Virus record (IMG/VR): IMGVR_UViG_3300029508_000049
Coordinates: 1-7,950 of that record
Reading direction: 5' to 3' (one strand)
Length of the DNA stretch: 7,950 nucleotides
Origin: a virus
Lineage: Duplodnaviria > Heunggongvirae > Uroviricota > Caudoviricetes
A model generated the notes under the pieces. That model did no database searches, had not been told where the DNA came from, and saw only the letters and a program-made list of their open reading frames with translations. Below, in pieces: positions 1-7,950 of the stretch (position 1 is the stretch's first letter; every line of letters starts with the position of its first letter). The position numbers were made by a program, and so were the translations under genes.

Positions 1-155
1 ATCCAGCGATATTCTGCCTGGGTGTGTTCACGCGCAATGAAGAACGTACAACCGGCTATCGCCCCGTAAGCCCAGTTCCCGGTAAAAAGACCAATCAGTA
101 GCTGCGCAGCCACAGCACAAAGCGCATGAAGGAAAGGTGTTATATCCATTTTCAT
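1..155 (-). CDS. Partial ORF (first 51 codons only) for a small hydrophobic, probably membrane, protein; continues beyond the window start
   Basis: Hand translation of the minus strand from ATG 155-153 (alternative ATG 149-147 with better spacing to a TAGGA motif): MKMDITPFLHALCAVAAQLLIGLFTGNWAYGAIAGCTFFIAREHTQAEYRW.. with no stop before the window edge. Missing from the ORF track, presumably on length. Hydrophobic stretch consistent with a transmembrane helix. Identity not recognised. Confidence 0.35.
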   Translation of the reverse strand, partial: MKMDITPFLHALCAVAAQLLIGLFTGNWAYGAIAGCTFFIAREHTQAEYRW

Positions 156-161
156 CCTACC

Positions 162-185
162 CAATAAAACGGGGCGCTCGGCCCC
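162..185 (-). terminator. Rho-independent terminator after the tail fibre operon
   Basis: Minus-strand RNA: GGGGC-CGAGC-GCCCC hairpin (171-185) followed by GUUUUAUUG (162-170), beginning 7 nt after the orf346 stop. The plus strand also has an A/T-rich tail (ttaatattattt), so it could act bidirectionally. Confidence 0.55.
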
Positions 186-191
186 TTAATA

Positions 192-1232
192 TTATTTAGA
201 CGCAAGCGCCGCCTCAATTACAGATAATCTTTGTCTTAATTCTGCGTTTTCTTCTTCCAGTGCTGTTATTCTGTCGTCTGACTCTCTGGCTACCTGAACA
301 AGCAAGCCAGTAACACCAGAATAATCTACTGTGTAATAACGTTCACCTTCTTCACCTTCCGATCCGCTCGCACCGTCCTGATATTTCATTGCGGAACCTA
401 CAACTTCTGGGATTGCTTCCAGAGCTTCCTGTGCAATGACACCAGCATAGGGCATACCGTTTTCTTTAAGCGTGTATGTATAGCCGTTCATTTTACGGAT
501 GCGGTCGGTTGCATTATCGATCACCTGAATGTTGTCTTTCAGATCCCGGTCGGAATGCTGGTTAAATGCGGTGGCATGACATGCACCATTAACGCTTAAC
601 ATATAGGTGTTATCGGTATTTTTCTGCGCATAGAACATATAAGCGCCACCATCAACACCGACTTCATAAACAACAGGACGGCTGGAATTTCCCCATAATA
701 ACGTCGACACACCAGAATACGCCGTACCTTGCGTGTTTAGTGTCATGGTCGACCCGTGATTAGCATATTTGATCTGCAATGAGTCTGTATTATCAAACTT
801 AATAAGCGCGTTACTTCCCCGCACACCATACGACATGAGACAGTTCCCCATCTTAAGGTAACCATCACTGCCTGGAAAAATTAAAGTTCCTCCGTAAAGA
901 TCACTAAAGTCCCAAAAGATACCTTTTGTCCCGTTATGTGTGACGATCCTCGTCATTGTATCTTTAGTACCATCAATATTTTTTCTGGTATATATGTCAC
1001 TATAAGCGTTTTCCGTTTCACCAGTCTTATTTGACAAATGCAGCTTACCGCTGAATATAGTTCCAGTTGTTGGCAATGTTTTTTGATCATAGATTACATT
1101 GCAATAACCATTCCATGTTGTTTTATTGTCTACATAAGATTTTGTTGCGTAGCTTCCTTGATCGTTTTTTAATTTGCTAACGTCGGATTTTAGCGTTTTG
1201 ATGTCATCAGGAATTACTGTCGATGTAGCCAT
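192..1232 (-). CDS. Second tail fibre / fibre-tip protein with C-terminal intramolecular chaperone auto-processing domain (peptidase S74-like)
   Basis: 346-aa ORF, ATG 1232-1230, stop TAA 194-192. N-terminal part has a tail-fibre-type motif (SYATKSYVDNK) and is Gly/Thr/Asn/Tyr-rich as in beta-rich fibre tips. C-terminal about 120 aa (from ..NQHSDRDLKDNIQVIDNATDRIRKMNGYTYTLKENG..GVIAQEALEAIPEVV..YTVDYSGVTGLLVQVARESDDRITALEEENAELRQRL) shows the hallmark Ser...Lys dyad spacing (S227, K232) and GxIAQE / VDY motifs of endosialidase/T5 pb1-type intramolecular chaperone domains. Confidence 0.85.
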   Translation of the reverse strand: MATSTVIPDDIKTLKSDVSKLKNDQGSYATKSYVDNKTTWNGYCNVIYDQKTLPTTGTIFSGKLHLSNKTGETENAYSDIYTRKNIDGTKDTMTRIVTHNGTKGIFWDFSDLYGGTLIFPGSDGYLKMGNCLMSYGVRGSNALIKFDNTDSLQIKYANHGSTMTLNTQGTAYSGVSTLLWGNSSRPVVYEVGVDGGAYMFYAQKNTDNTYMLSVNGACHATAFNQHSDRDLKDNIQVIDNATDRIRKMNGYTYTLKENGMPYAGVIAQEALEAIPEVVGSAMKYQDGASGSEGEEGERYYTVDYSGVTGLLVQVARESDDRITALEEENAELRQRLSVIEAALASK

Positions 1233-1241
1233 TTTTCTTCC
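1233..1241 (-). promoter_or_regulatory. Shine-Dalgarno region for the 346-aa fibre gene
   Basis: Minus-strand sequence TGA-GGAAGAAAA-ATG: a GAGGAAG purine-rich motif overlaps the stop of the acidic ORF, 7 nt upstream of the ATG at 1232. Implies tight operon organisation fibre > orf93 > orf346. Confidence 0.5.
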
Positions 1242-1523
1242 TCACATCCAGCCACGAAGTTGATGCTCAACAGCAACCACGTATTCATCGAATAATGACG
1301 ATATTTGCGAATCATTAATGATGCGCACGTTTACAAAATATCCGTCTTCCTTAACACATACCGGTTCGCCATCTTCAGTCAGTTCTCCGGTTTCTTTGTA
1401 CACGTTACCTATCACGTCGATAAGAATATCATCCTGCATCGACTCATCATCATAATAGCCAATACTCTCCATAAAGGCCGAAAAGTCGGCCCTGTCTTCA
1501 AATTTGAGTGTTAAATCTTTCAT
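1242..1523 (-). CDS. Hypothetical small, highly acidic protein (93 aa), translationally coupled to the tail fibre gene; function unknown
   Basis: ATG at 1523-1521 overlaps the fibre stop in a TAATG arrangement; stop TGA at 1244-1242. By my count 22 D/E against 7 K/R in 93 residues. No family recognised by eye. GC about 40%, matching the flanking low-GC module. Confidence 0.55.
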   Translation of the reverse strand: MKDLTLKFEDRADFSAFMESIGYYDDESMQDDILIDVIGNVYKETGELTEDGEPVCVKEDGYFVNVRIINDSQISSLFDEYVVAVEHQLRGWM

Positions 1524-3895
1524 TAGATTGACTCCCCCACCTGAGCATCAGTCAATGCCTTGTGCCATATTCTGAAATTCCTGACATGACCAAATAAATG
1601 ACGTAACCCGGCTGTAGTCTGGCCTCCAATACGGATAATTGCGGTGTTCTGAATACAGGACCATGTGGTTTTTGTTTCGCTGGATATATGCCCGTTACTT
1701 ACTGAGCACGTAGACTGCTCTGACTTTACACGCATCCCCATAACCATTTTTTCAAGCGATGCGTTTTCGTTTACCCGTCTGTTAGCTCCTCCAATATCGC
1801 AATAAGGAAATCCGTCGTAATCTGTTGAACGACCGAAGCCAAGAATAATAGCCGCTCCGGTTTGATGACCGCCGGTATCAAAAACACGTGGCGCTGCATT
1901 TGGCGTTTTATACCAGTTCTTATGTACCTCACAAAGAACCGTAAAAGGAAGATTATAAAGATTATTCTTAATTGGAACTGTAACTATATCGCTTGCGCGG
2001 GTCGCCGCCGTCGCTCCTGATATAATAAAAGATGATACACAAGGCCCATCTTCTACTTGTGGGGTGGCCAGATAAATATAGTCACCAGATACGGTTGCCC
2101 CGCTCTGCTTAGGAGAATACTGTATCTGAGAGCCTATTTTTAACTCCCCATCAATTGCCTGAATTGTTGCCTCTGCAAAAATCCATCCGGTAGCTTCGTC
2201 CTTTCTGACTCTCGCTGTAATCCTTGAGGCAGCACCGCCTGTCATATTAATTTCAAGCGCTTGTGTATCAATATACGCATCACCAAGAAAAGTTGTTGCG
2301 CTACCGTCATATTTATCAAACCGGATACGCAACCTTACCTGCAGTTCTGTTTTAAAACGACATGAGGTTGTCACGTGTTTATTATCGCCTGAGACATCAA
2401 CTGACTTTGTTGCAGCAATTGATGCCATATTAATGGCTGAGGTTTGCCCAATCAGAGAATCGTTGCAGACAAACTTTCCATAGGTAAAACCAAAATTATC
2501 CGTCCCTGTTTCGGGCACATCCATATTTGACGATCGCCCCCAACTGGCAGGGCTTTCCGAATTGAGCATGTAGTTTGTTCTTTGCCCCTCAATAAGCAGG
2601 CCATCACGTTCAAATCGTGGCTCGTCAATGGCAGCCTCTGTCAGCACACCAGATTTGTTAATATAGGTTGCTTTCGATGCACGTTTAAACTTAACAATCT
2701 TGTCGCCAGGCATCGTTATTTCATCGTCACCAATAACAATTTTTTTATATGATGGCGAAAAGCCCGTAATCATATCCAGCGAATCGTTAAATGGTATCCA
2801 CACATCAGGCAGCGGCTGTAAGACATATTTATACGGCTCCGCAGCCTGGCTTGCGTACTCTCTGGCTGCATCTTCGCTTGCTTTAGCTGCCGTCTGGCTT
2901 GCTGCCGATGCTTTCGCTGAGTTCGCAGCCGCTGTTTCGCTCACCTTTGCGTTGGTTTCACTGGTTTTTGCTGCTTTTTGACTGTTAGCTGATGCAGTGG
3001 CAGAAGCAGCCGCCGCGCTTGCAGAACTGGCTGCGGCACTCTCGCTTTGGGCCGCTGCATCCTGACTGCTTTTCGCCGCAGTTTCACTGGCTTTGGCATT
3101 CGTTTCGCTGGTCTTCGCTGCCGTCTGGCTGGACTTTGCGTTAGTTTCACTCGTCTTCGCAGCTTTCTGGCTGTTAGCCGCAGCAGTTGCTGATCCAGCT
3201 GCTGAAGTCGCAGAACCGGCTGCCGCGCTCTCGCTTTGGGCTGCTGCAACCTGGCTGTTTTTTGCCGCAGTTTCACTGGCTTTGGCATTCGTTTCGCTGG
3301 TCTTCGCTGCCGTCTGGCTGGACTTTGCGTTGGTTTCGCTCGTCTTTGCGGCTGTCTCGCTGTTTTTCGCGTTGGTTTCTGATTTTTTGGCTGCTGTCGC
3401 GGAGTTTGCCGATGCAGTCTTTGAGGTCGCTGCCGCCTGTGCACTATTAGCTGCATTCGTTTCTGAGGTTTTCGCCGCGTTCTTTGATGATGCCGCTGCA
3501 GTTTCGGATTTCTTTGCCGCCGCTGCGCTCTGAGAGGCGGCTTCGGCGTTGCGTGCCACTTCTTCCACCATTGCCTCAAAACGACGCAATGCCTCCGGCA
3601 TGACATCATCTTCCGTCATGGCACCGAGAAAATCATTCAGCGTACCTGGTCTGGAACCTTCATAGACGGTAATGGTCCCGGCATGTGAAGGCGGAAAACC
3701 TTCAACCAGCAGGGTGACGCTGTACTGGCCATACTCAACATCCATGCTGTAACGCCCGGCTTCATCAGGATTTTCAGAGGCCAGCGTGTTCACCACCACA
3801 GTGGTACTGTTACGTTTTGCTTTCAGCTGGATTGTGCAGTTCTGTACCGGTTTTCCTGTGCCGTCTTTCAGTACACCAGAAATCTTTACTGTCAT
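1523..3895 (-). CDS. stf: Side tail fibre protein (lambda Stf-like N-terminal anchor, repetitive Ala-rich shaft, divergent low-GC distal domain with a possible LamG/ConA-like C-terminus)
   Basis: The ORF track opens at a GTG (3901) giving MNMTVK..; I place the start at the in-frame ATG 3895-3893 (MTVKISGVLKDGTGKPVQNCTIQLKAKRNSTTVVVNTLASENPDEAGRYSMDVEYGQYSV..), which matches the lambda Stf N-terminus (MAVKISGVLKDG..) as I recall it. Stop TAA at 1525-1523. The middle is low-complexity A/S/T/K/E-rich with tandem repeats. The C-terminus ..LFGHVRNFRIWHKALTDAQVGESI resembles the terminal motif of LamG-like jelly-roll domains. Confidence 0.88.
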   Translation of the reverse strand: MTVKISGVLKDGTGKPVQNCTIQLKAKRNSTTVVVNTLASENPDEAGRYSMDVEYGQYSVTLLVEGFPPSHAGTITVYEGSRPGTLNDFLGAMTEDDVMPEALRRFEAMVEEVARNAEAASQSAAAAKKSETAAASSKNAAKTSETNAANSAQAAATSKTASANSATAAKKSETNAKNSETAAKTSETNAKSSQTAAKTSETNAKASETAAKNSQVAAAQSESAAAGSATSAAGSATAAANSQKAAKTSETNAKSSQTAAKTSETNAKASETAAKSSQDAAAQSESAAASSASAAAASATASANSQKAAKTSETNAKVSETAAANSAKASAASQTAAKASEDAAREYASQAAEPYKYVLQPLPDVWIPFNDSLDMITGFSPSYKKIVIGDDEITMPGDKIVKFKRASKATYINKSGVLTEAAIDEPRFERDGLLIEGQRTNYMLNSESPASWGRSSNMDVPETGTDNFGFTYGKFVCNDSLIGQTSAINMASIAATKSVDVSGDNKHVTTSCRFKTELQVRLRIRFDKYDGSATTFLGDAYIDTQALEINMTGGAASRITARVRKDEATGWIFAEATIQAIDGELKIGSQIQYSPKQSGATVSGDYIYLATPQVEDGPCVSSFIISGATAATRASDIVTVPIKNNLYNLPFTVLCEVHKNWYKTPNAAPRVFDTGGHQTGAAIILGFGRSTDYDGFPYCDIGGANRRVNENASLEKMVMGMRVKSEQSTCSVSNGHISSETKTTWSCIQNTAIIRIGGQTTAGLRHLFGHVRNFRIWHKALTDAQVGESI
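2882..3394. repeat. In-frame tandem repeat, 189-bp period (63 aa), about 2 full copies plus degenerate flanking partial copies, inside the tail fibre shaft
   Basis: DNA block gtttcactggctttggcattcgtttcgctggtcttcgctgccgtctggctggactttgcgtt occurs at 3081 and again at 3270 (offset 189). Protein copies: KTSETNAKSSQTAAKTSETNAKASETAAKNSQVAAAQSESAAAGSATSAAGSATAAANSQKAA and KTSETNAKSSQTAAKTSETNAKASETAAKSSQDAAAQSESAAASSASAAAASATASANSQKAA, with a shorter SETNAK/SETAAK sub-periodicity. Confidence 0.75.
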
Positions 3896-3906
3896 ATTCA
3901 CCCCAC

Positions 3907-3933
3907 AAAAAAGCCCGCCTGAACCGGCGGGCT
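3907..3933 (-). terminator. Rho-independent terminator downstream of lom, immediately upstream of the tail fibre gene
   Basis: Minus-strand RNA: GCCCGCC-GGUUCA-GGCGGGC (perfect 7-bp GC-rich stem, 3913-3919 paired with 3926-3932) followed by UUUUUU (complement of the A6 run at 3907-3912). Starts 27 nt after the lom stop and ends about 12 nt before the fibre ATG. Confidence 0.65.
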
Positions 3934-3959
3934 GTCATAACACTGTCTTACCTGGCTAA

Positions 3960-4583
3960 TCAGAACTTATAACCGACACCCACGATGAAACCGTCAGTGC
4001 GCCAGTCGCCACTGCCGGAACCTTCATAAGCAAGGTCAATAACCACCGTCTCTACGGGACTGAACTGAATCCCGGCATTCCAGGCCGGCGACAGATGACG
4101 CGCAGTATGGCCATCACTGGCGGTGGTGGTCTCCTTCACATACCCCGGTTTCACTTCATCATGCCGGTAATCCTGAACACTGTCAGACCAGCGGGTGTAC
4201 GCCATCCCGGCCATGCCATAGAGACTGACCCGCTCACTGAGCTGCCAGACAGGGCCGGCCATCAGACTGACATAACGACCGCGCAGACTTTCATGATGGA
4301 AGGTATTTTCACCCGTCTTCATCGTGTCACTTTTCTTCACCGATGCATAACTCAGCGCGACAATGCCGCCCAGGTGATCCGTGAACTCATAACGGTATTT
4401 CACGTTAATCCCTTTTAAATCACCTGCACGCGCACCGGTACCGGACAATGCCGGTACGCCGCCCGGGTGAACCTGAGCATATCCCACGGAAAATGCACCG
4501 TGTCCGCTTTCAGCCTGTGCAGGAAGGGAAATGCCTGTCAGCAGTGCGGTCCAGAATAAAATGGCTCCGTATAAATGTCGCAT
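3960..4583 (-). CDS. lom: Lom/Ail-family outer-membrane beta-barrel protein (lysogenic-conversion 'moron')
   Basis: 207-aa ORF, ATG at 4583-4581 preceded by GAGAGG about 7 nt upstream. N-terminal signal peptide MRHLYGAILFWTALLTGISLPAQA followed by AESGHG. Strong similarity to lambda Lom as I recall it (GINVKYRYE, HESLRGRYVS, AYEGSGSGDWRTDGFIVGVGYKF), and a C-terminal aromatic residue (..YKF) typical of outer-membrane barrels. Confidence 0.93.
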   Translation of the reverse strand: MRHLYGAILFWTALLTGISLPAQAESGHGAFSVGYAQVHPGGVPALSGTGARAGDLKGINVKYRYEFTDHLGGIVALSYASVKKSDTMKTGENTFHHESLRGRYVSLMAGPVWQLSERVSLYGMAGMAYTRWSDSVQDYRHDEVKPGYVKETTTASDGHTARHLSPAWNAGIQFSPVETVVIDLAYEGSGSGDWRTDGFIVGVGYKF

Positions 4584-4607
4584 GATGACCTCTCGTTTTC
4601 AGTCAAT

Positions 4608-4631
4608 AAAAAAGGCACCTCCTGAGGTGCC
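4608..4631 (-). terminator. Intrinsic-terminator-like hairpin plus U-tract between J and lom (minus-strand sense)
   Basis: Read on the minus strand: GGCACC(UC)-loop-(GA)GGUGCC stem (4614-4631) followed directly by UUUUUUAUU (complement of the A-run at 4608-4613). Lies in the 67-nt J-lom spacer, ending about 25 nt before the lom start codon. Confidence 0.5.
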
Positions 4632-4650
4632 CGTCCGGGTTAATAAACCG

Positions 4651-7600
4651 TCAGCTGATACTGATCCCTGCCGTGGATTTTTTCATGACCACAACCAGTA
4701 AATCACTGATGTACGTTGTCGGCGTCCAGTTGTTCGCACCGGCCGACGACACATTAAACGTCAGGGTGACATGACCCCGCCCTGCCGGCATATCTATCAC
4801 CGATGAGAACACCCGGCTGACATCAGTTGCCGGTTCATGGAAAATCTCAACCCCGTTCTTCAGCACCTGCAGCTTACAGGTGGAATACCAGTACGACTGC
4901 TGATTCGGGCTGTTGAAATTCTGGTGTTTCGTCCCGCGAAACAGTACCGGGGGAATGATGATCTGCCGGTCGAAGCCCTGGTCATCGTAAACTGTGACGG
5001 TTACCGTCCCGCTGGCATAACTGTTATTCCGGGGAAAGGCTTTCCCCACCGTCTTCACCAGGTCGCCTTCAATCTGGTTTGCAGACAGTTTCCCTCTGAT
5101 GACACAGTTCTCGTTAATGGTGACATTATTGAGCGTGCCGGTATTCGCGGTAATTGCTCCGCTGATATCCGCGTTCCTGGCTGTCAGCTTCCCTTCCGGC
5201 GTCAGGGAAAACGTCGGGGGGTTGCCGGATGACGTGATACTCACCGCAAACAGTCGCTTCAGGAACACGTCGTTCATGAACAGCTGATTCCCCTGCGCCA
5301 CAAATAACGGCGTGCTGTTGCCGTTCTCCGGATTTATCATCGCGATACGGTCAGCCAGCAGCAGTATGTTGCTCAGTGGCTGGCCATCAGTATCCTCAAT
5401 CCCTGCACCAATCCCGGCCACATAGGGAATGCCGTCTTTCGTTTTTTGAACCTTCAGCATGTACAGCGCAGCCAGGTCATCATTTGTGTCCTTCTGCACG
5501 CGCTGTATCTGCTGAATGGTGGCGCTCTGGTCTTCCAGCGTTTTACTGACCGTCTGTGTGATTTCATTGCGGGTTTCGGTGATGGTGGTCTTCATCTCCG
5601 CCATCTCATCCGCAAGCTGGCTGTTGTCTATCAGCTCCCACAGCCCCTGAGCCAGATGCAGTTTTCCTATTTTTTCCCGAAACAGCCCCAGATACCCTTC
5701 TGCATCATTGCTGGCCCGGCCACTGGCTTCCACAAAAGCAGATTTCCCCACCAGGTTGACGCTGCGCACGTAAAACCAGAAATCCTTCCCGGGCTTAATG
5801 TGCGGGCCGGATACACTCCACTGACTGCCGGTCCCCAGATAACGGGCAGAGGTTTCCACCTGAGATGTGTCTGCGATTTTTGCCTCCGAAAACCAGAATT
5901 CAAACTGTACCGTCGGATCATACACCGCCAGCACCGGTACCGCCGTTATCTGAAAATACCCCGGCGTCAGTTCAATGGTGGCGGGTACCGCAGGTGCATT
6001 AATCCTGAACGTGGTGGTGGCCGGTTCGCCCTGCTGGCCATAACTGTTAATTGCCCTGACTGTCAGGGTGTATTCCCCGAGCGGCAGACCACTGAAACGA
6101 TGCTCTGTATCCGCAGTGATGGCGGTGGTCACCAGACGGCTGTCTTCTCCGCTTCCGCTGGTCAGGCGCAGACTGAAGCGCACACCCTTCACCACCCGCG
6201 GCGTGTCCCATTTCGCCTGTGCCAGATACTGACCGTCAGCCGCGCTCACCTCCACCGTCAGGTGCTGCACTGCCGGTGGAATAACGCTGTTCAGGGTGCC
6301 TGACTGCGGCTCAAAGCTGGCCCCGTTATCCACGATGGCTTCTTTTTCCGGTACGTGCTGCACTGCCGTGATGGCAAAGGTGCCGTCCGTGTTTTCCCGG
6401 ATGGAGACACAGCGGAACAGGCGACGACGCAGTGACGGCAGGGAGAGTCCCCATACACCGTATGTCTCCACACCATCAGGCAGGGTGCTGACCTGTATCC
6501 GGTCCGGCGCGGGGTGTGCAGTGATGGCCACGCTCACCGGCTTACCGCTGCCGTTAATCAGGTTCACCGCCGATGTACCTGTCTCCGGCAGGGTAACCTC
6601 ACGGTCCAGCGTCAGGGTGCGGGTGGCAGCATCAATGGACAGGACACGTCCGCCGGTCATAGTCCCGGCATAGTCGTTATCACAGATTTCAATAATGTCA
6701 CCCGGTGTGTGACGCAGCCCCTGTGACCCGAGCGTGAAGTCCACCGTCTGCGTTTCCAGCAGTTCGGTCTTTATCACCCACAGACCTGCACGGTGAGCCT
6801 GACCGCGGCTGGTACAGCCAAACGCATCCATCTTCAGCAGATTGCGTCCGTAGCGCAGTATGGCTTCCGTGTCTTCCACCAGTTCCGTGGAGGTCTGCCA
6901 GCCGTTCTGCGGGTCGGTGTAATTCACCTCCACCGCCGTGTGCCGGTCCTTCAGGGCACTGAAGCTGTAGCGGAACCCCACGCCGTTATCATCCACCACC
7001 ACATCGCTGTTGGTGTACGGCCACACCACATCCGACGGGCGGTCCTGAACGAACGTCAGCGTCTGACCGTTCCATACCGGCATACAGCGCATCGCAGAGC
7101 AGAAATCACTGAGAACGTCCCACGCCTTACGCTGTTGTGCCAGGTACGCATTAAAGGTCATCCGCGGCTCTGTGCCCCCGAAACCATCCGGGACCGTCTG
7201 GTCGCAGTACTGCCCGATGGCATACAGCGCCCACTTGTCCACATCCGCCGCCCCCAGACGTTTTCCCATGCCGTAGCGCGGGTGAGTCAGCATGTCCCAC
7301 AGACACCAGGCCGGATTGTTGCTGTATGCCGGTTTCAGACTGCCGTCCCAGATACCACTGTACGTGCGTTTTTCCGGGTCATAGTTTGACGGCACCTGGA
7401 TGATGCGACCGCGGATATGGTAGTTCACCGTCATCTGCTGGCCGCCGAACTGCTCCGCATCCACCTGCAGCCCCACAATGGCCGTGTTCGGGTAGCACTG
7501 TTTCACATCGATGATTTCGGTGTATGACGACCACAGCGTCTTATTCTGCAGCTGGTCCGTGGTGCTGTCCGCCGTCTCCCTGACCATCCGGATGTTAAAG

Positions 7601-7950
7601 GGCCGGGGAGGCAGATTATCCAGAATCACCGAGGCCAGGAACTGTGAGGTGGTCTTGCCGTTAATGGTGACGTCCTTTTCTGTCACCCAGTTACCGTTAC
7701 GCTGTAACTGAATCAGCAGGCGGACGGATGCCGGGTTACGGTCACCCTTTGAGGTGGTCTCCACCAGTGACTGCACCCCGAAGGTAACCCGCAGGCGGTC
7801 AATGTTCGCGGACGTAATGGTGCGCGTCACCGGTTTTGCCTTCGTCACTTCCACGCCCAGTCCGGTTTCAGCTCCGGAGGACTCAAAGCCTTCCGGTGGT
7901 GTCTGCTCCTGCTCCCCGGCACGCCAGACCGCGGTCACACCGTGTATCAC
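4651..7950 (-). CDS. J: Host specificity / tail tip attachment protein J (central tail fibre), partial: N-terminus lies beyond the window end
   Basis: Uninterrupted 1099-codon minus-strand frame running to the window edge; stop TGA at 4651-4653. The translation matches lambda J as I recall it along its length (e.g. [144 protein letters not shown]). The window begins about 60 residues into the lambda protein, so the leading M in the ORF track is a GTG at the window edge, not the true start. GC about 58% on a hand-counted 60-nt sample (7261-7320). Confidence 0.95.

Follow-up and report, generated by a model that had tools for sequence, protein, structure and literature searches.

This locus raises the question of what the gene downstream of a side tail fibre gene (stf) encodes, and where on the phage particle its product would sit. 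The gene is a 346-residue open reading frame (ORF) at 192..1232 on the minus strand of the window, which is the whole stretch of DNA that was analysed (7,950 nucleotides, positions 1 to 7,950 of IMG/VR record IMGVR_UViG_3300029508_000049). The ORF is intact, with an ATG start and a stop codon at 192-194; its Shine-Dalgarno sequence (GAGGAAG; 1237..1243, minus strand), read in the DNA, ends 4 nt upstream of the ATG.

The protein is an ordinary, previously annotated family member and is not new. It was matched over its full length by phrog_4563 ('tail fiber protein'; E 7e-209), and its homologues in phage records are labelled "endosialidase chaperone" or "peptidase S74"; a search against NCBIfam returned no match for this protein or for the 93-aa protein encoded beside it. 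At least 999 public contigs carry the exact 346-aa sequence, and 616 of 5,426 complete E. coli genomes have the gene. Finding an S74 domain here means little by itself, since the domain is a textbook one that standard pipelines label and the sequence is abundant in E. coli genomes. A literature search found no experimental study of the protein, of its close homologues or of the PhiR or Tritos fibres. We consider it probable that the product of the ORF is an exchangeable subunit at the distal end of a side tail fibre, one that several genes of a lambdoid E. coli prophage encode together.

The C-terminal chaperone domain

A Pfam search matched PF13884 (Peptidase_S74, "chaperone of endosialidase") to residues 227-278 with an E-value of 6.3e-14 and a score of 52.4 bits (gathering cut-off: 22 bits), covering profile positions 1-57 of 58. 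The peptidase S74/intramolecular chaperone domain predicted by the first-pass annotation was thereby recovered by the very search it had named as a check, and the outcome it had set against its own claim, no HMM hit, did not occur. Profile position 1 falls on Ser227, with Lys232 five residues further on. In an alignment of 40 sequences, S227, D228, L231 and K232 were present in 39/39 non-gapped sequences, and the position and Ser-x4-Lys spacing are those of T5 pb1, so the Ser227/Lys232 dyad proposed earlier holds. The pb1 dyad is Ser1264/Lys1269, and its mechanism and spacing have been described (PMC4690869). By this analogy, Ser227 (codon 552..554, minus strand; counterpart of Ser1264) is the predicted nucleophile and the first residue of the released domain, Lys232 (codon 537..539, minus strand; counterpart of Lys1269) is the predicted general base, and the scissile bond would be His226|Ser227; the correspondence of residues and DNA, including His226 at 555-557, was checked by hand. 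The quoted motifs HS-DRDLK-DNI, GVIAQEALEAIPEVV and YTVDYSGVTGLLVQ all lie where the first-pass annotation had placed them.

The chaperone domain as a whole comprises residues 227-346 (195..554, minus strand), of which the Pfam core corresponds to nt 399-554. AlphaFold2 predicted a beta hairpin (residues 278-302) and, after it, a long helix (residues 304-344; nt 201-323), which fits the coiled-coil tail suggested earlier. The domain reaches the stop codon, and thus the extreme C-terminus, directly behind a beta domain of the T4 gp34 type. The protein matched 9,593 cluster representatives; among the best 150 of these, most align with residues ~150-346 of the query alone and stop close to their own C-terminus, the pattern expected of a C-terminal folding module. 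The precursor has a calculated mass of 37.97 kDa, to which residues 1-226 and 227-346 correspond as pieces of 24.79 and 13.19 kDa, in agreement with the earlier estimates of ~24 kDa for the mature fibre and ~120 aa for the chaperone. Judging from the conserved residues, self-cleavage at His226|Ser227 would yield products of 24.8 and 13.2 kDa. In T5 pb1, cleavage is licensed by folding sensors from the neighbouring subunit (Arg1250 and Asp1239); among homologues of the present protein, R185, E190, N215, G216 and Q225 are invariant or nearly so.

The protein resembles endoNF (K1F), T5 pb1 and S16 gp37 in its full PF13884 match and in the position of the dyad at the start of the domain, and it resembles S74 fibres and spikes in general in having the chaperone at the extreme C-terminus after a beta-rich domain. 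The description of the domain as T5 pb1-type stands at the level of the family and not at that of sequence: the nearest solved relative is gp37 of Salmonella phage S16, whose equivalent region was matched by the family profile (PDB 6f45, E 1.8e-7), and for T5 pb1 and endoNF the only matches were weak ones at the level of the fold. The same profile also weakly matched the ICA domain of MyRF. Unlike endoNF and pb1, which have about 900-1,260 residues, the protein has a mature part of only 226 aa. Its maturation without a separate chaperone, as claimed by the first-pass annotation, is plausible, although the adjacent 93-aa protein might act as a helper.

Conserved ends and a variable middle

Along the 346-aa protein, residues 1-20 and the chaperone domain are well conserved and the stretch between them poorly so, which indicates selection on the gene. 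The N-terminal stretch (residues 1-20, MATSTVIPDDIKTLKSDVSK; 1173..1232, minus strand), which we propose to be a docking peptide followed by the start of a short coiled coil, retains 60-70% identity in homologues that are ~40% identical elsewhere, and the first 44 nt of the gene are 100% identical in one different allele. The block that follows (residues 36-105; 918..1127, minus strand) is mosaic and hypervariable: compared with phage Tritos, it is 31% identical whereas its flanks are 83-100% identical, two alleles are visible, and identity in distant homologues is only 8-24%. AlphaFold2 modelled this block as beta strands with a pLDDT of about 80, and it is a candidate specificity determinant. 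Just before the cleavage site lies a conserved beta domain (residues 166-226; 555..737, minus strand) with the T4 gp34-type motif WG..R..V.EVG...FYAQ.N.D....NG, in which W180, G181 and R185 are invariant and the AlphaFold2 pLDDT is 79-90; the A1 profile matched T4 gp34 (5nxh, E 2.4e-9; 4uxe, E 1.5e-8). Neither the Pfam and PHROG searches nor the AlphaFold2 model revealed a tail-attachment domain, and only ~35 residues precede the beta-rich body.

A three-gene cassette shared across phage families

The order of genes in the window is stf (1523..3901), the 93-aa ORF (1242..1523) and the 346-aa ORF (192..1232), all on the minus strand. The N-terminal domain of Stf belongs to PF08400 (E 6.3e-68). 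Its C-terminal domain (residues 365-792; 1526..2809, minus strand) is globular and lectin-like, matching NCBIfam NF048003 GTA_spike_fiber (E 4.7e-13) and PDB 6tb9 Rcc01080 (E 5.3e-7), and is 43-59% identical to large proteins of Drexlerviridae type. This C-terminal domain, our proposed platform for the 346-aa protein, is kept across phage families, whereas the N-terminus and shaft are not. The locus shares its genomic position with lambda Stf/Tfa (J, lom, stf, accessory gene or genes) and the family of the Stf N-terminus. Unlike in lambda, the cassette lacks a Tfa-type assembly chaperone gene, the Stf C-terminus is lectin-like and resembles the RcGTA head-spike fibre, and the tip protein is a separate gene product with its own chaperone in cis.

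The 93-aa ORF, whose start codon overlaps the end of stf (TAATG, with the stf stop codon TAA), is a conserved partner of this fibre type. It matched phrog_1361, a family found in 181 phage records and adjoining a tail-fibre gene where annotated. A Pfam search with its product returned nothing, even at E 10, the best 120 homologues listed are named solely 'hypothetical protein' or 'Prophage protein', and its AlphaFold2 model (pLDDT 51.6) was too poor for a fold search. The 93-aa and 346-aa ORFs share one reading frame. Directly after the 346-aa gene, a terminator-like hairpin (GGGGCCGAGCGCCCC followed by GTTTTATT; 163..185, minus strand) falls just where the variable cassette ends on its downstream side, and window bases 1-158 are common to lambdoid phages without the third gene.

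The 346-aa gene is an optional third member of this cassette, placed after the Stf lectin-like C-terminal domain and the ~92-aa gene. The cassette was found in lambdoid, Nonagvirus, Drexlerviridae, Dhillonvirus and T5-like phages, for example in the lambdoid Tritos and PhiR11_1, the virulent Nonagvirus phages ESCO3, JenP1 and L008, and the Drexlerviridae-like contigs L007 and L010. The N-terminal anchor and shaft of the large fibre protein differ among the lambdoid, Nonagvirus and Drexlerviridae-like carriers. In the Drexlerviridae-like contigs the trio stands by itself, with the primase gene on one side and the recombination genes on the other, the position given for the lateral-fibre locus in the 2021 BASEL paper. 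Phage 21, Lambda_2G7a, ev243 and 4A7 have the Stf and ~92-aa genes and lack the third gene; the platform therefore works without the 346-aa protein, and the 93-aa protein is not specifically an adaptor of it. Between PhiR11_1 and the window, the 346-aa protein is 89% identical, the 93-aa protein 33% and the Stf C-terminal region about 30-58%, so any interface among them must tolerate much divergence.

All third genes of the cassette open with M-x-T-x-T-x-I-P-x-D-I-T-x-L-K (variant: M-[AV]-T-x-T-x-I-P-x-D-I-T-x-L-K). This motif was found in 104 phage records and also opens IrisVonRoten gp24, L6jm ORF132, KarlJaspers 0035, KarlBarth 0030 and the AR_0013 234-aa protein; in 14/14 cross-checkable records among the 104, it starts 10-19 nt past the ~92-aa gene.

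A parallel in a T5-like phage is provided by gp22/gp23/gp24 of IrisVonRoten (Bas32, Tequintavirus), which come in the same order: first the large proximal fibre, next the ~92-aa protein and last a distal protein that ends in S74. The C-terminal 430 aa of gp22 are 63% identical to the window Stf C-terminus over 431 aligned positions (direct pairwise comparison; the BLAST run omitted this match, a heuristic artefact), and gp23 is 39% identical to the 93-aa ORF product. The anchors differ, that of the window Stf being lambdoid (PF08400) and that of the IrisVonRoten proximal fibre T5-type. IrisVonRoten gp24, which starts with MVTKTVIPTDITKLK, shares the MVTKTVIPxDIT.LK motif and the S74 domain with the 346-aa protein and has been modelled as attached to the proximal fibre gp22 in an AlphaFold-Multimer prediction (PLoS Biol 2025, PMC11990801). 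With its 574 aa, gp24 has a predicted T shape and two predicted binding domains; the 346-aa protein differs in its mature length of 226 aa, in an unrelated middle sequence and in having probably a single binding region. A branched fibre is also known from the T5-like phage DT57C, in which one of LtfA and LtfB is anchored to the tail and the second receptor-binding protein is attached through the first (PMC10713586). The likeness of this pair to the window fibre is one of attachment principle. LtfA and LtfB both presumably bear C-terminal chaperone domains.

Position in the virion and consequences for the side fibre

Under the reading that we favour, a distal subunit of the side fibre, the S74 domain (residues 227-346) would bring three chains into register, with folding proceeding from the C-terminus. 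Once the trimer had folded correctly, Lys232-activated Ser227 would cut the His226|Ser227 bond in each chain, releasing the 13.2-kDa chaperone and leaving the 24.8-kDa mature protein. The mature trimer would then attach to the virion via the N-terminal motif (residues 1-20) and a short coiled coil, the attachment point being the globular C-terminal domain of the neighbouring Stf, possibly together with the 93-aa protein. We infer that the protein forms trimers and, from the cassette and its shared motif, that it docks on Stf in this way. The docked trimer would add a second binding domain to the side fibre, with its variable part at roughly residues 36-165, and, to judge from the analogous lateral fibres that related siphophages have, it would bind a receptor, most likely a surface glycan.

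The first-pass annotation had instead taken the protein for a receptor-binding protein apart from the main side fibre. Physically this is probably wrong, given that no tail-attachment domain is recognisable. What stands of the claim is that the protein is a polypeptide of its own and probably also a binding domain in its own right; what does not is its independence, as it is always accompanied by the ~92-aa gene and the C-terminal domain of Stf. The missing attachment domain, the constant cassette partners and the shared N-terminal motif together make a distal or branch subunit of the side fibre more likely. In our judgement it is thus unlikely that the mature trimer is fixed straight to the tail tip or baseplate instead of Stf and forms a second receptor-binding fibre of its own. 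Such an arrangement would suit a gene with its own strong ribosome-binding site, a product whose own chaperone domain makes autonomous folding possible, and the phages with the Stf and 92-aa genes alone, in which the 346-aa protein is dispensable for the side fibre. Against it, besides the brevity of the N-terminal region, the gene passes between phages with differing tail-tip proteins and anchors in the company of the 92-aa gene and the C-terminal domain of Stf, the trio is alone at the Drexlerviridae-like lateral-fibre locus, and the homologous gp24 is modelled on gp22.

We give very little credence to the protein being solely a trans-acting assembly chaperone that aids Stf folding and is not a virion component. 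S74 domains act in cis on the polypeptide that carries them where they have been studied (T5 pb1, PMC4690869), Stf homologues exist without the third gene, and residues 1-226 hold a T4 gp34-type domain and a mosaic hypervariable block, typical of receptor-binding regions. The names 'endosialidase chaperone' and 'putative lateral tail fiber chaperone' in ESCO3, KarlJaspers, XY3 and JK16 agree with such a role, but these GenBank names derive from the Pfam family title and not from experiments. The shortest alleles (225-234 aa) also speak for it: their mature part has only about 110-115 residues and, at least in the AR_0013 allele, is largely heptad-like and of coiled-coil type. Least probable of all is a relic in a decaying prophage, its ORF intact by chance and its chaperone domain inactive or its product unused. 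Strain 13TMH22 does have a 99.9% identical copy in a Rac-like prophage that is degraded and whose J gene is truncated, but in the window no internal stops interrupt lom, stf, the 93-aa and 346-aa ORFs or the part of J that precedes the window end, the catalytic motif is strictly conserved in homologues, and the pattern of conserved ends and variable middle indicates selection. Moreover, close homologues occur in PhiR63_1, PhiR11_1, JenP1 and ESCO3, which were deposited complete with named propagation hosts, and also in Tritos. All three readings were rejected on the cassette, conservation and domain evidence.

Returning to the distal-subunit reading, a conserved N-terminal plug in a cassette that is shared by phages with differing tail tips and anchors needs a conserved socket within that cassette. 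As a tentative extension, this socket may be the Stf lectin-like C-terminal domain, possibly with the ~92-aa protein, into which the ~15-residue N-terminal motif would fit as a universal plug, with the ~92-aa protein acting as joint adaptor or cap; lambdoid, Drexlerviridae, Dhillonvirus, Queuovirinae and T5-like phages could then swap S74-ended tips. If so, these self-folding distal tips would differ greatly in size, their mature parts having about 110 to 460 residues. The BASEL papers already contain the general notion that proximal and distal subunits have a conserved N-terminus; what would be new is this particular motif, its extension to temperate lambdoid prophages and the role of the ~92-aa protein.

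The short N-terminal motif marks the swap point, and the junction is identical at the DNA level in one other allele. If docking is correct, lambdoid or T5-like particles could be retargeted by exchanging the third gene downstream of codon 15-20, and the widespread ~92-aa protein would gain its first candidate role. The side fibre of this common prophage type appears to carry two binding modules, the lectin-like C-terminus of Stf and an exchangeable, self-folding tip.

Peptidase S74 domain and variable body of the 346-aa protein

The first-pass annotation had read the 346-aa ORF (192..1232, minus strand) as a short fibre ending in a self-cleaving intramolecular chaperone domain, and its ORF, coordinates and residue numbers were correct (codons: His226, 555-557; Ser227, 552-554; Lys232, 537-539). 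The HMM search it had proposed was positive: residues 227-278 matched positions 1-57 of the 58 in Pfam PF13884 (Peptidase_S74, "chaperone of endosialidase") at E 6.3e-14 and 52.4 bits (curated cut-off: 22), and because the match begins at profile position 1, the domain starts exactly at Ser227. Across an alignment of 40 homologues (35-95% identical), S227, D228, L231 and K232 were present in every sequence covering the site, with a variable residue preceding Ser227 (H, S, G, T, V, L or Q). With this match and this conservation, both the chaperone domain and the Ser227/Lys232 dyad are real. A search of a 1.84-billion-protein library returned 9,593 cluster representatives at E ≤ 0.001, and among the best 150 of these, most matches were confined to the final ~200 query residues and stopped close to the C-terminus of the matched protein. 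In Salmonella phage S16 gp37, the alignment profile matched the equivalent stretch (6f45, E 1.8e-7); it also picked up, weakly, the ICA domain of MyRF, another S74 member. We are practically certain that the C-terminal domain is an ordinary peptidase S74 domain.

In T5 pb1, Lys1269 activates the nucleophilic, scissile Ser1264, which lies five residues before it, and the Thr1263-Ser1264 bond is cut when licensed by correct trimer folding (PMC4690869); the Ser-Lys spacing of the 346-aa protein is the same. Short helices, a hairpin over residues 278-302 and a long helix spanning 304-344 are predicted in its chaperone part, in line with the published chaperone architecture. From the conserved dyad, self-cleavage is plausible and very likely active; the precursor has a calculated mass of 37.97 kDa, the mature part would be 24.79 kDa and the released part 13.19 kDa.

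Compared with homologues ~40% identical overall, the protein was 60-70% conserved in residues 1-20, 59-80% in the chaperone domain and 8-39% between them. Such a profile would suit a protein that attaches by a conserved end, binds with a variable body and folds through a conserved module. The motif WG..R..V.EVG...FYAQ.N.D....NG lies in residues 166-226, which the family profile aligned to a globular domain that recurs in gp34, the proximal long-fibre protein of T4 (5nxh, E 2.4e-9). Residues 36-105 (918-1127, minus strand) form a mosaic block with 31% identity to Tritos between flanks at 83-100%, and 98% identity to the virulent Nonagvirus JenP1; the flanks show opposite or uniformly high similarity relative to the block, which points to recent intragenic recombination between temperate and virulent phages.

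Gene neighbourhood and the side tail fibre

The genes relevant to the 346-aa ORF are all on the minus strand, at the tail end of a lambdoid E. coli prophage: partial J (4651..7950), lom (3960..4583), stf (1523..3901; side tail fibre, 792 aa, N-terminus matching PF08400 at E 6.3e-68), a 93-aa ORF (1242..1523; phrog_1361), the 346-aa ORF itself with PF13884 at its C-terminus, and, running down from base 149, the beginning of a gene for a ~97-aa membrane protein with two predicted transmembrane segments. A terminator-like hairpin with a T-run (171-185, minus strand) lies directly 3' of the 346-aa gene, before the ~97-aa gene, which is kept in lambdoid phages with or without a gene for an S74-ended fibre and adjoins the sitABCD iron/manganese transporter genes in several relatives.

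Many E. coli chromosomes are 99.9% identical to the region, and there NCBI PGAP names the 346-aa ORF "tail fiber domain-containing protein"; sequenced phages 84-96% identical include Tritos, 2G7b, PhiR63_1 and Nonagvirus ESCO3 and JenP1 (product names "endosialidase chaperone" in ESCO3 and "putative endosialidase-like protein" in JenP1). The identical 346-aa sequence occurs in at least 999 public contigs, one member of its protein cluster bears the name "peptidase S74", and the gene is present at ≥ 80% coverage in 616 of 5,426 complete E. coli genomes. In E. coli 13TMH22 (NZ_CP019256.1), a 99.9% identical copy sits inside a degraded Rac-like prophage, with sitABCD on one side and trkG on the other; J is truncated there, and the stf, 93-aa and 346-aa ORFs are still intact despite the decay. 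Incoming phages might recombine with this copy, which would then serve as a reservoir.

The Stf C-terminus (residues 365-792; 1526-2809, minus strand) departs from the lambda type: it resembles Rcc01080, the head-spike fibre of the Rhodobacter capsulatus gene transfer agent (6tb9, E 5.3e-7), matches NCBIfam NF048003 (E 4.7e-13) and shows a weak, sub-threshold concanavalin/LamG-like match at its end. Given the likeness to Rcc01080 and the concanavalin-like match, the side fibre probably has a binding domain of its own already, and the 346-aa protein would be a second. A 189-bp tandem repeat (2.2 copies) with 42-bp sub-repeats (2945-3364) encodes the Ala/Ser/Thr-rich SETNAK shaft of Stf and probably accounts for the long spurious ORFs that appear in the other frames (minus strand, 2941..3609; plus strand, 3093..3533). 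The listed stf start (3895-3901, minus strand) is a GTG giving VNMTVKISG...; as homologues open MAVQISG, it is probably two codons too early, with the ATG at 3893-3895 the real start.

A three-gene cassette across phage groups

Lambdoid phages, virulent Nonagvirus and Drexlerviridae-like contigs share a cassette of three genes. Its products are a large fibre protein whose C-terminal ~430 aa form a conserved domain, a protein of ~92 aa (the 93-aa ORF here) and an S74 protein of ~335-350 aa. The large protein differs from group to group in its N-terminal anchor and its shaft, which are only ~30% identical or unrelated. In the Drexlerviridae-like contigs, the trio stands alone between a primase gene and recombination genes, where the lateral-fibre locus of Drexlerviridae has been placed (BASEL 2021 paper). 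T5-like IrisVonRoten has the identical order (gp22/gp23/gp24): gp22 shares 63% identity with the window's Stf over its C-terminal 430 aa, gp23 shares 39% with the 93-aa ORF, and gp24 (574 aa, S74-ended) starts MVTKTVIPTDITKLK where the 346-aa protein has MATSTVIPDDIKTLK.

This N-terminal motif also opens third genes of other lengths (KarlJaspers, 225 aa; KarlBarth, 98 aa; L6jm, 576 aa; a 234-aa allele in E. coli AR_0013). A PF13884 scan that took in KarlJaspers, AR_0013, gp24 and KarlBarth was positive for the first three (KarlJaspers only just, at 22.4 bits with the cut-off at 22), and the Pfam scan gave no match for the 98-aa KarlBarth ORF. Searching with the 22-residue consensus found 104 phage records, each at a weak E-value, and in all 14 records common to both sampled tables the match begins 10-19 nt past the ~92-aa gene. 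The initial 44 nt of this gene in the window (1189-1232, minus strand; the 346-aa ORF) recur at 100% identity in the AR_0013 allele (3840-4544 of that locus, L020), to which it is otherwise unrelated; this looks like a recombination or module-swap junction.

The ATG of the 93-aa ORF overlaps the stf stop codon (TAATG). Its homologues occur in 181 phage records, annotated next to a tail-fibre gene, and span lambdoid, Drexlerviridae, Dhillonvirus, Nonagvirus, T5-like and rV5-like phages. The 93-aa ORF had no Pfam or NCBIfam match, and its AlphaFold2 model (pLDDT 51.6) was too poor for use. The gene is found both with and without the third gene; its product pairs primarily with the Stf C-terminal domain, perhaps as chaperone, cap or adaptor. 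Four records labelled Listeria or Campylobacter phage (H76, H82, H83 and H91 in the phage-record table), some of them fragments of 1.8-7.5 kb, carry an enterobacterial, T5-like fibre cassette and look like mislabelled or contaminant sequences.

Probable attachment through the side fibre

The first-pass annotation had also taken the 346-aa protein for a fibre distinct from the side fibre, which is probably wrong given the cassette shared across phages, the shared N-terminal motif and the AlphaFold-Multimer model of gp24 attached to the proximal fibre gp22 (BASEL 2025 paper), whose C-terminus is described there as a galectin-like extra binding domain. A plug conserved across different tails would need a conserved socket, and the only conserved neighbours are within the cassette, so docking would take place inside it. 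As a caveat to docking, phage 21, Lambda_2G7a, ev243 and 4A7 have a homologue of the Stf C-terminus and the ~92-aa gene without the third gene, the membrane-protein gene following directly; the 346-aa protein is therefore an optional addition. On balance, we consider it likely that the 346-aa protein is attached through Stf. The C-terminal chaperone domain would drive trimer folding, self-cleavage at His226|Ser227 would follow, and the N-terminal motif of the mature 24.8-kDa trimer would then dock on the platform formed by the Stf C-terminus, giving the side fibre a second binding module that can be exchanged.

Two-part fibres whose distal subunit ends in S74 are on record for related phages (BASEL 2021, 2025; the branched LtfA/LtfB fibre of DT57C), and with regular S74 membership and an abundant sequence as well, the S74 finding for the 346-aa protein is already known. 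The remaining novelty lies in its context: the specific N-terminal motif, its presence in temperate lambdoid prophages as well, and the ~92-aa partner with its 181 phage records.
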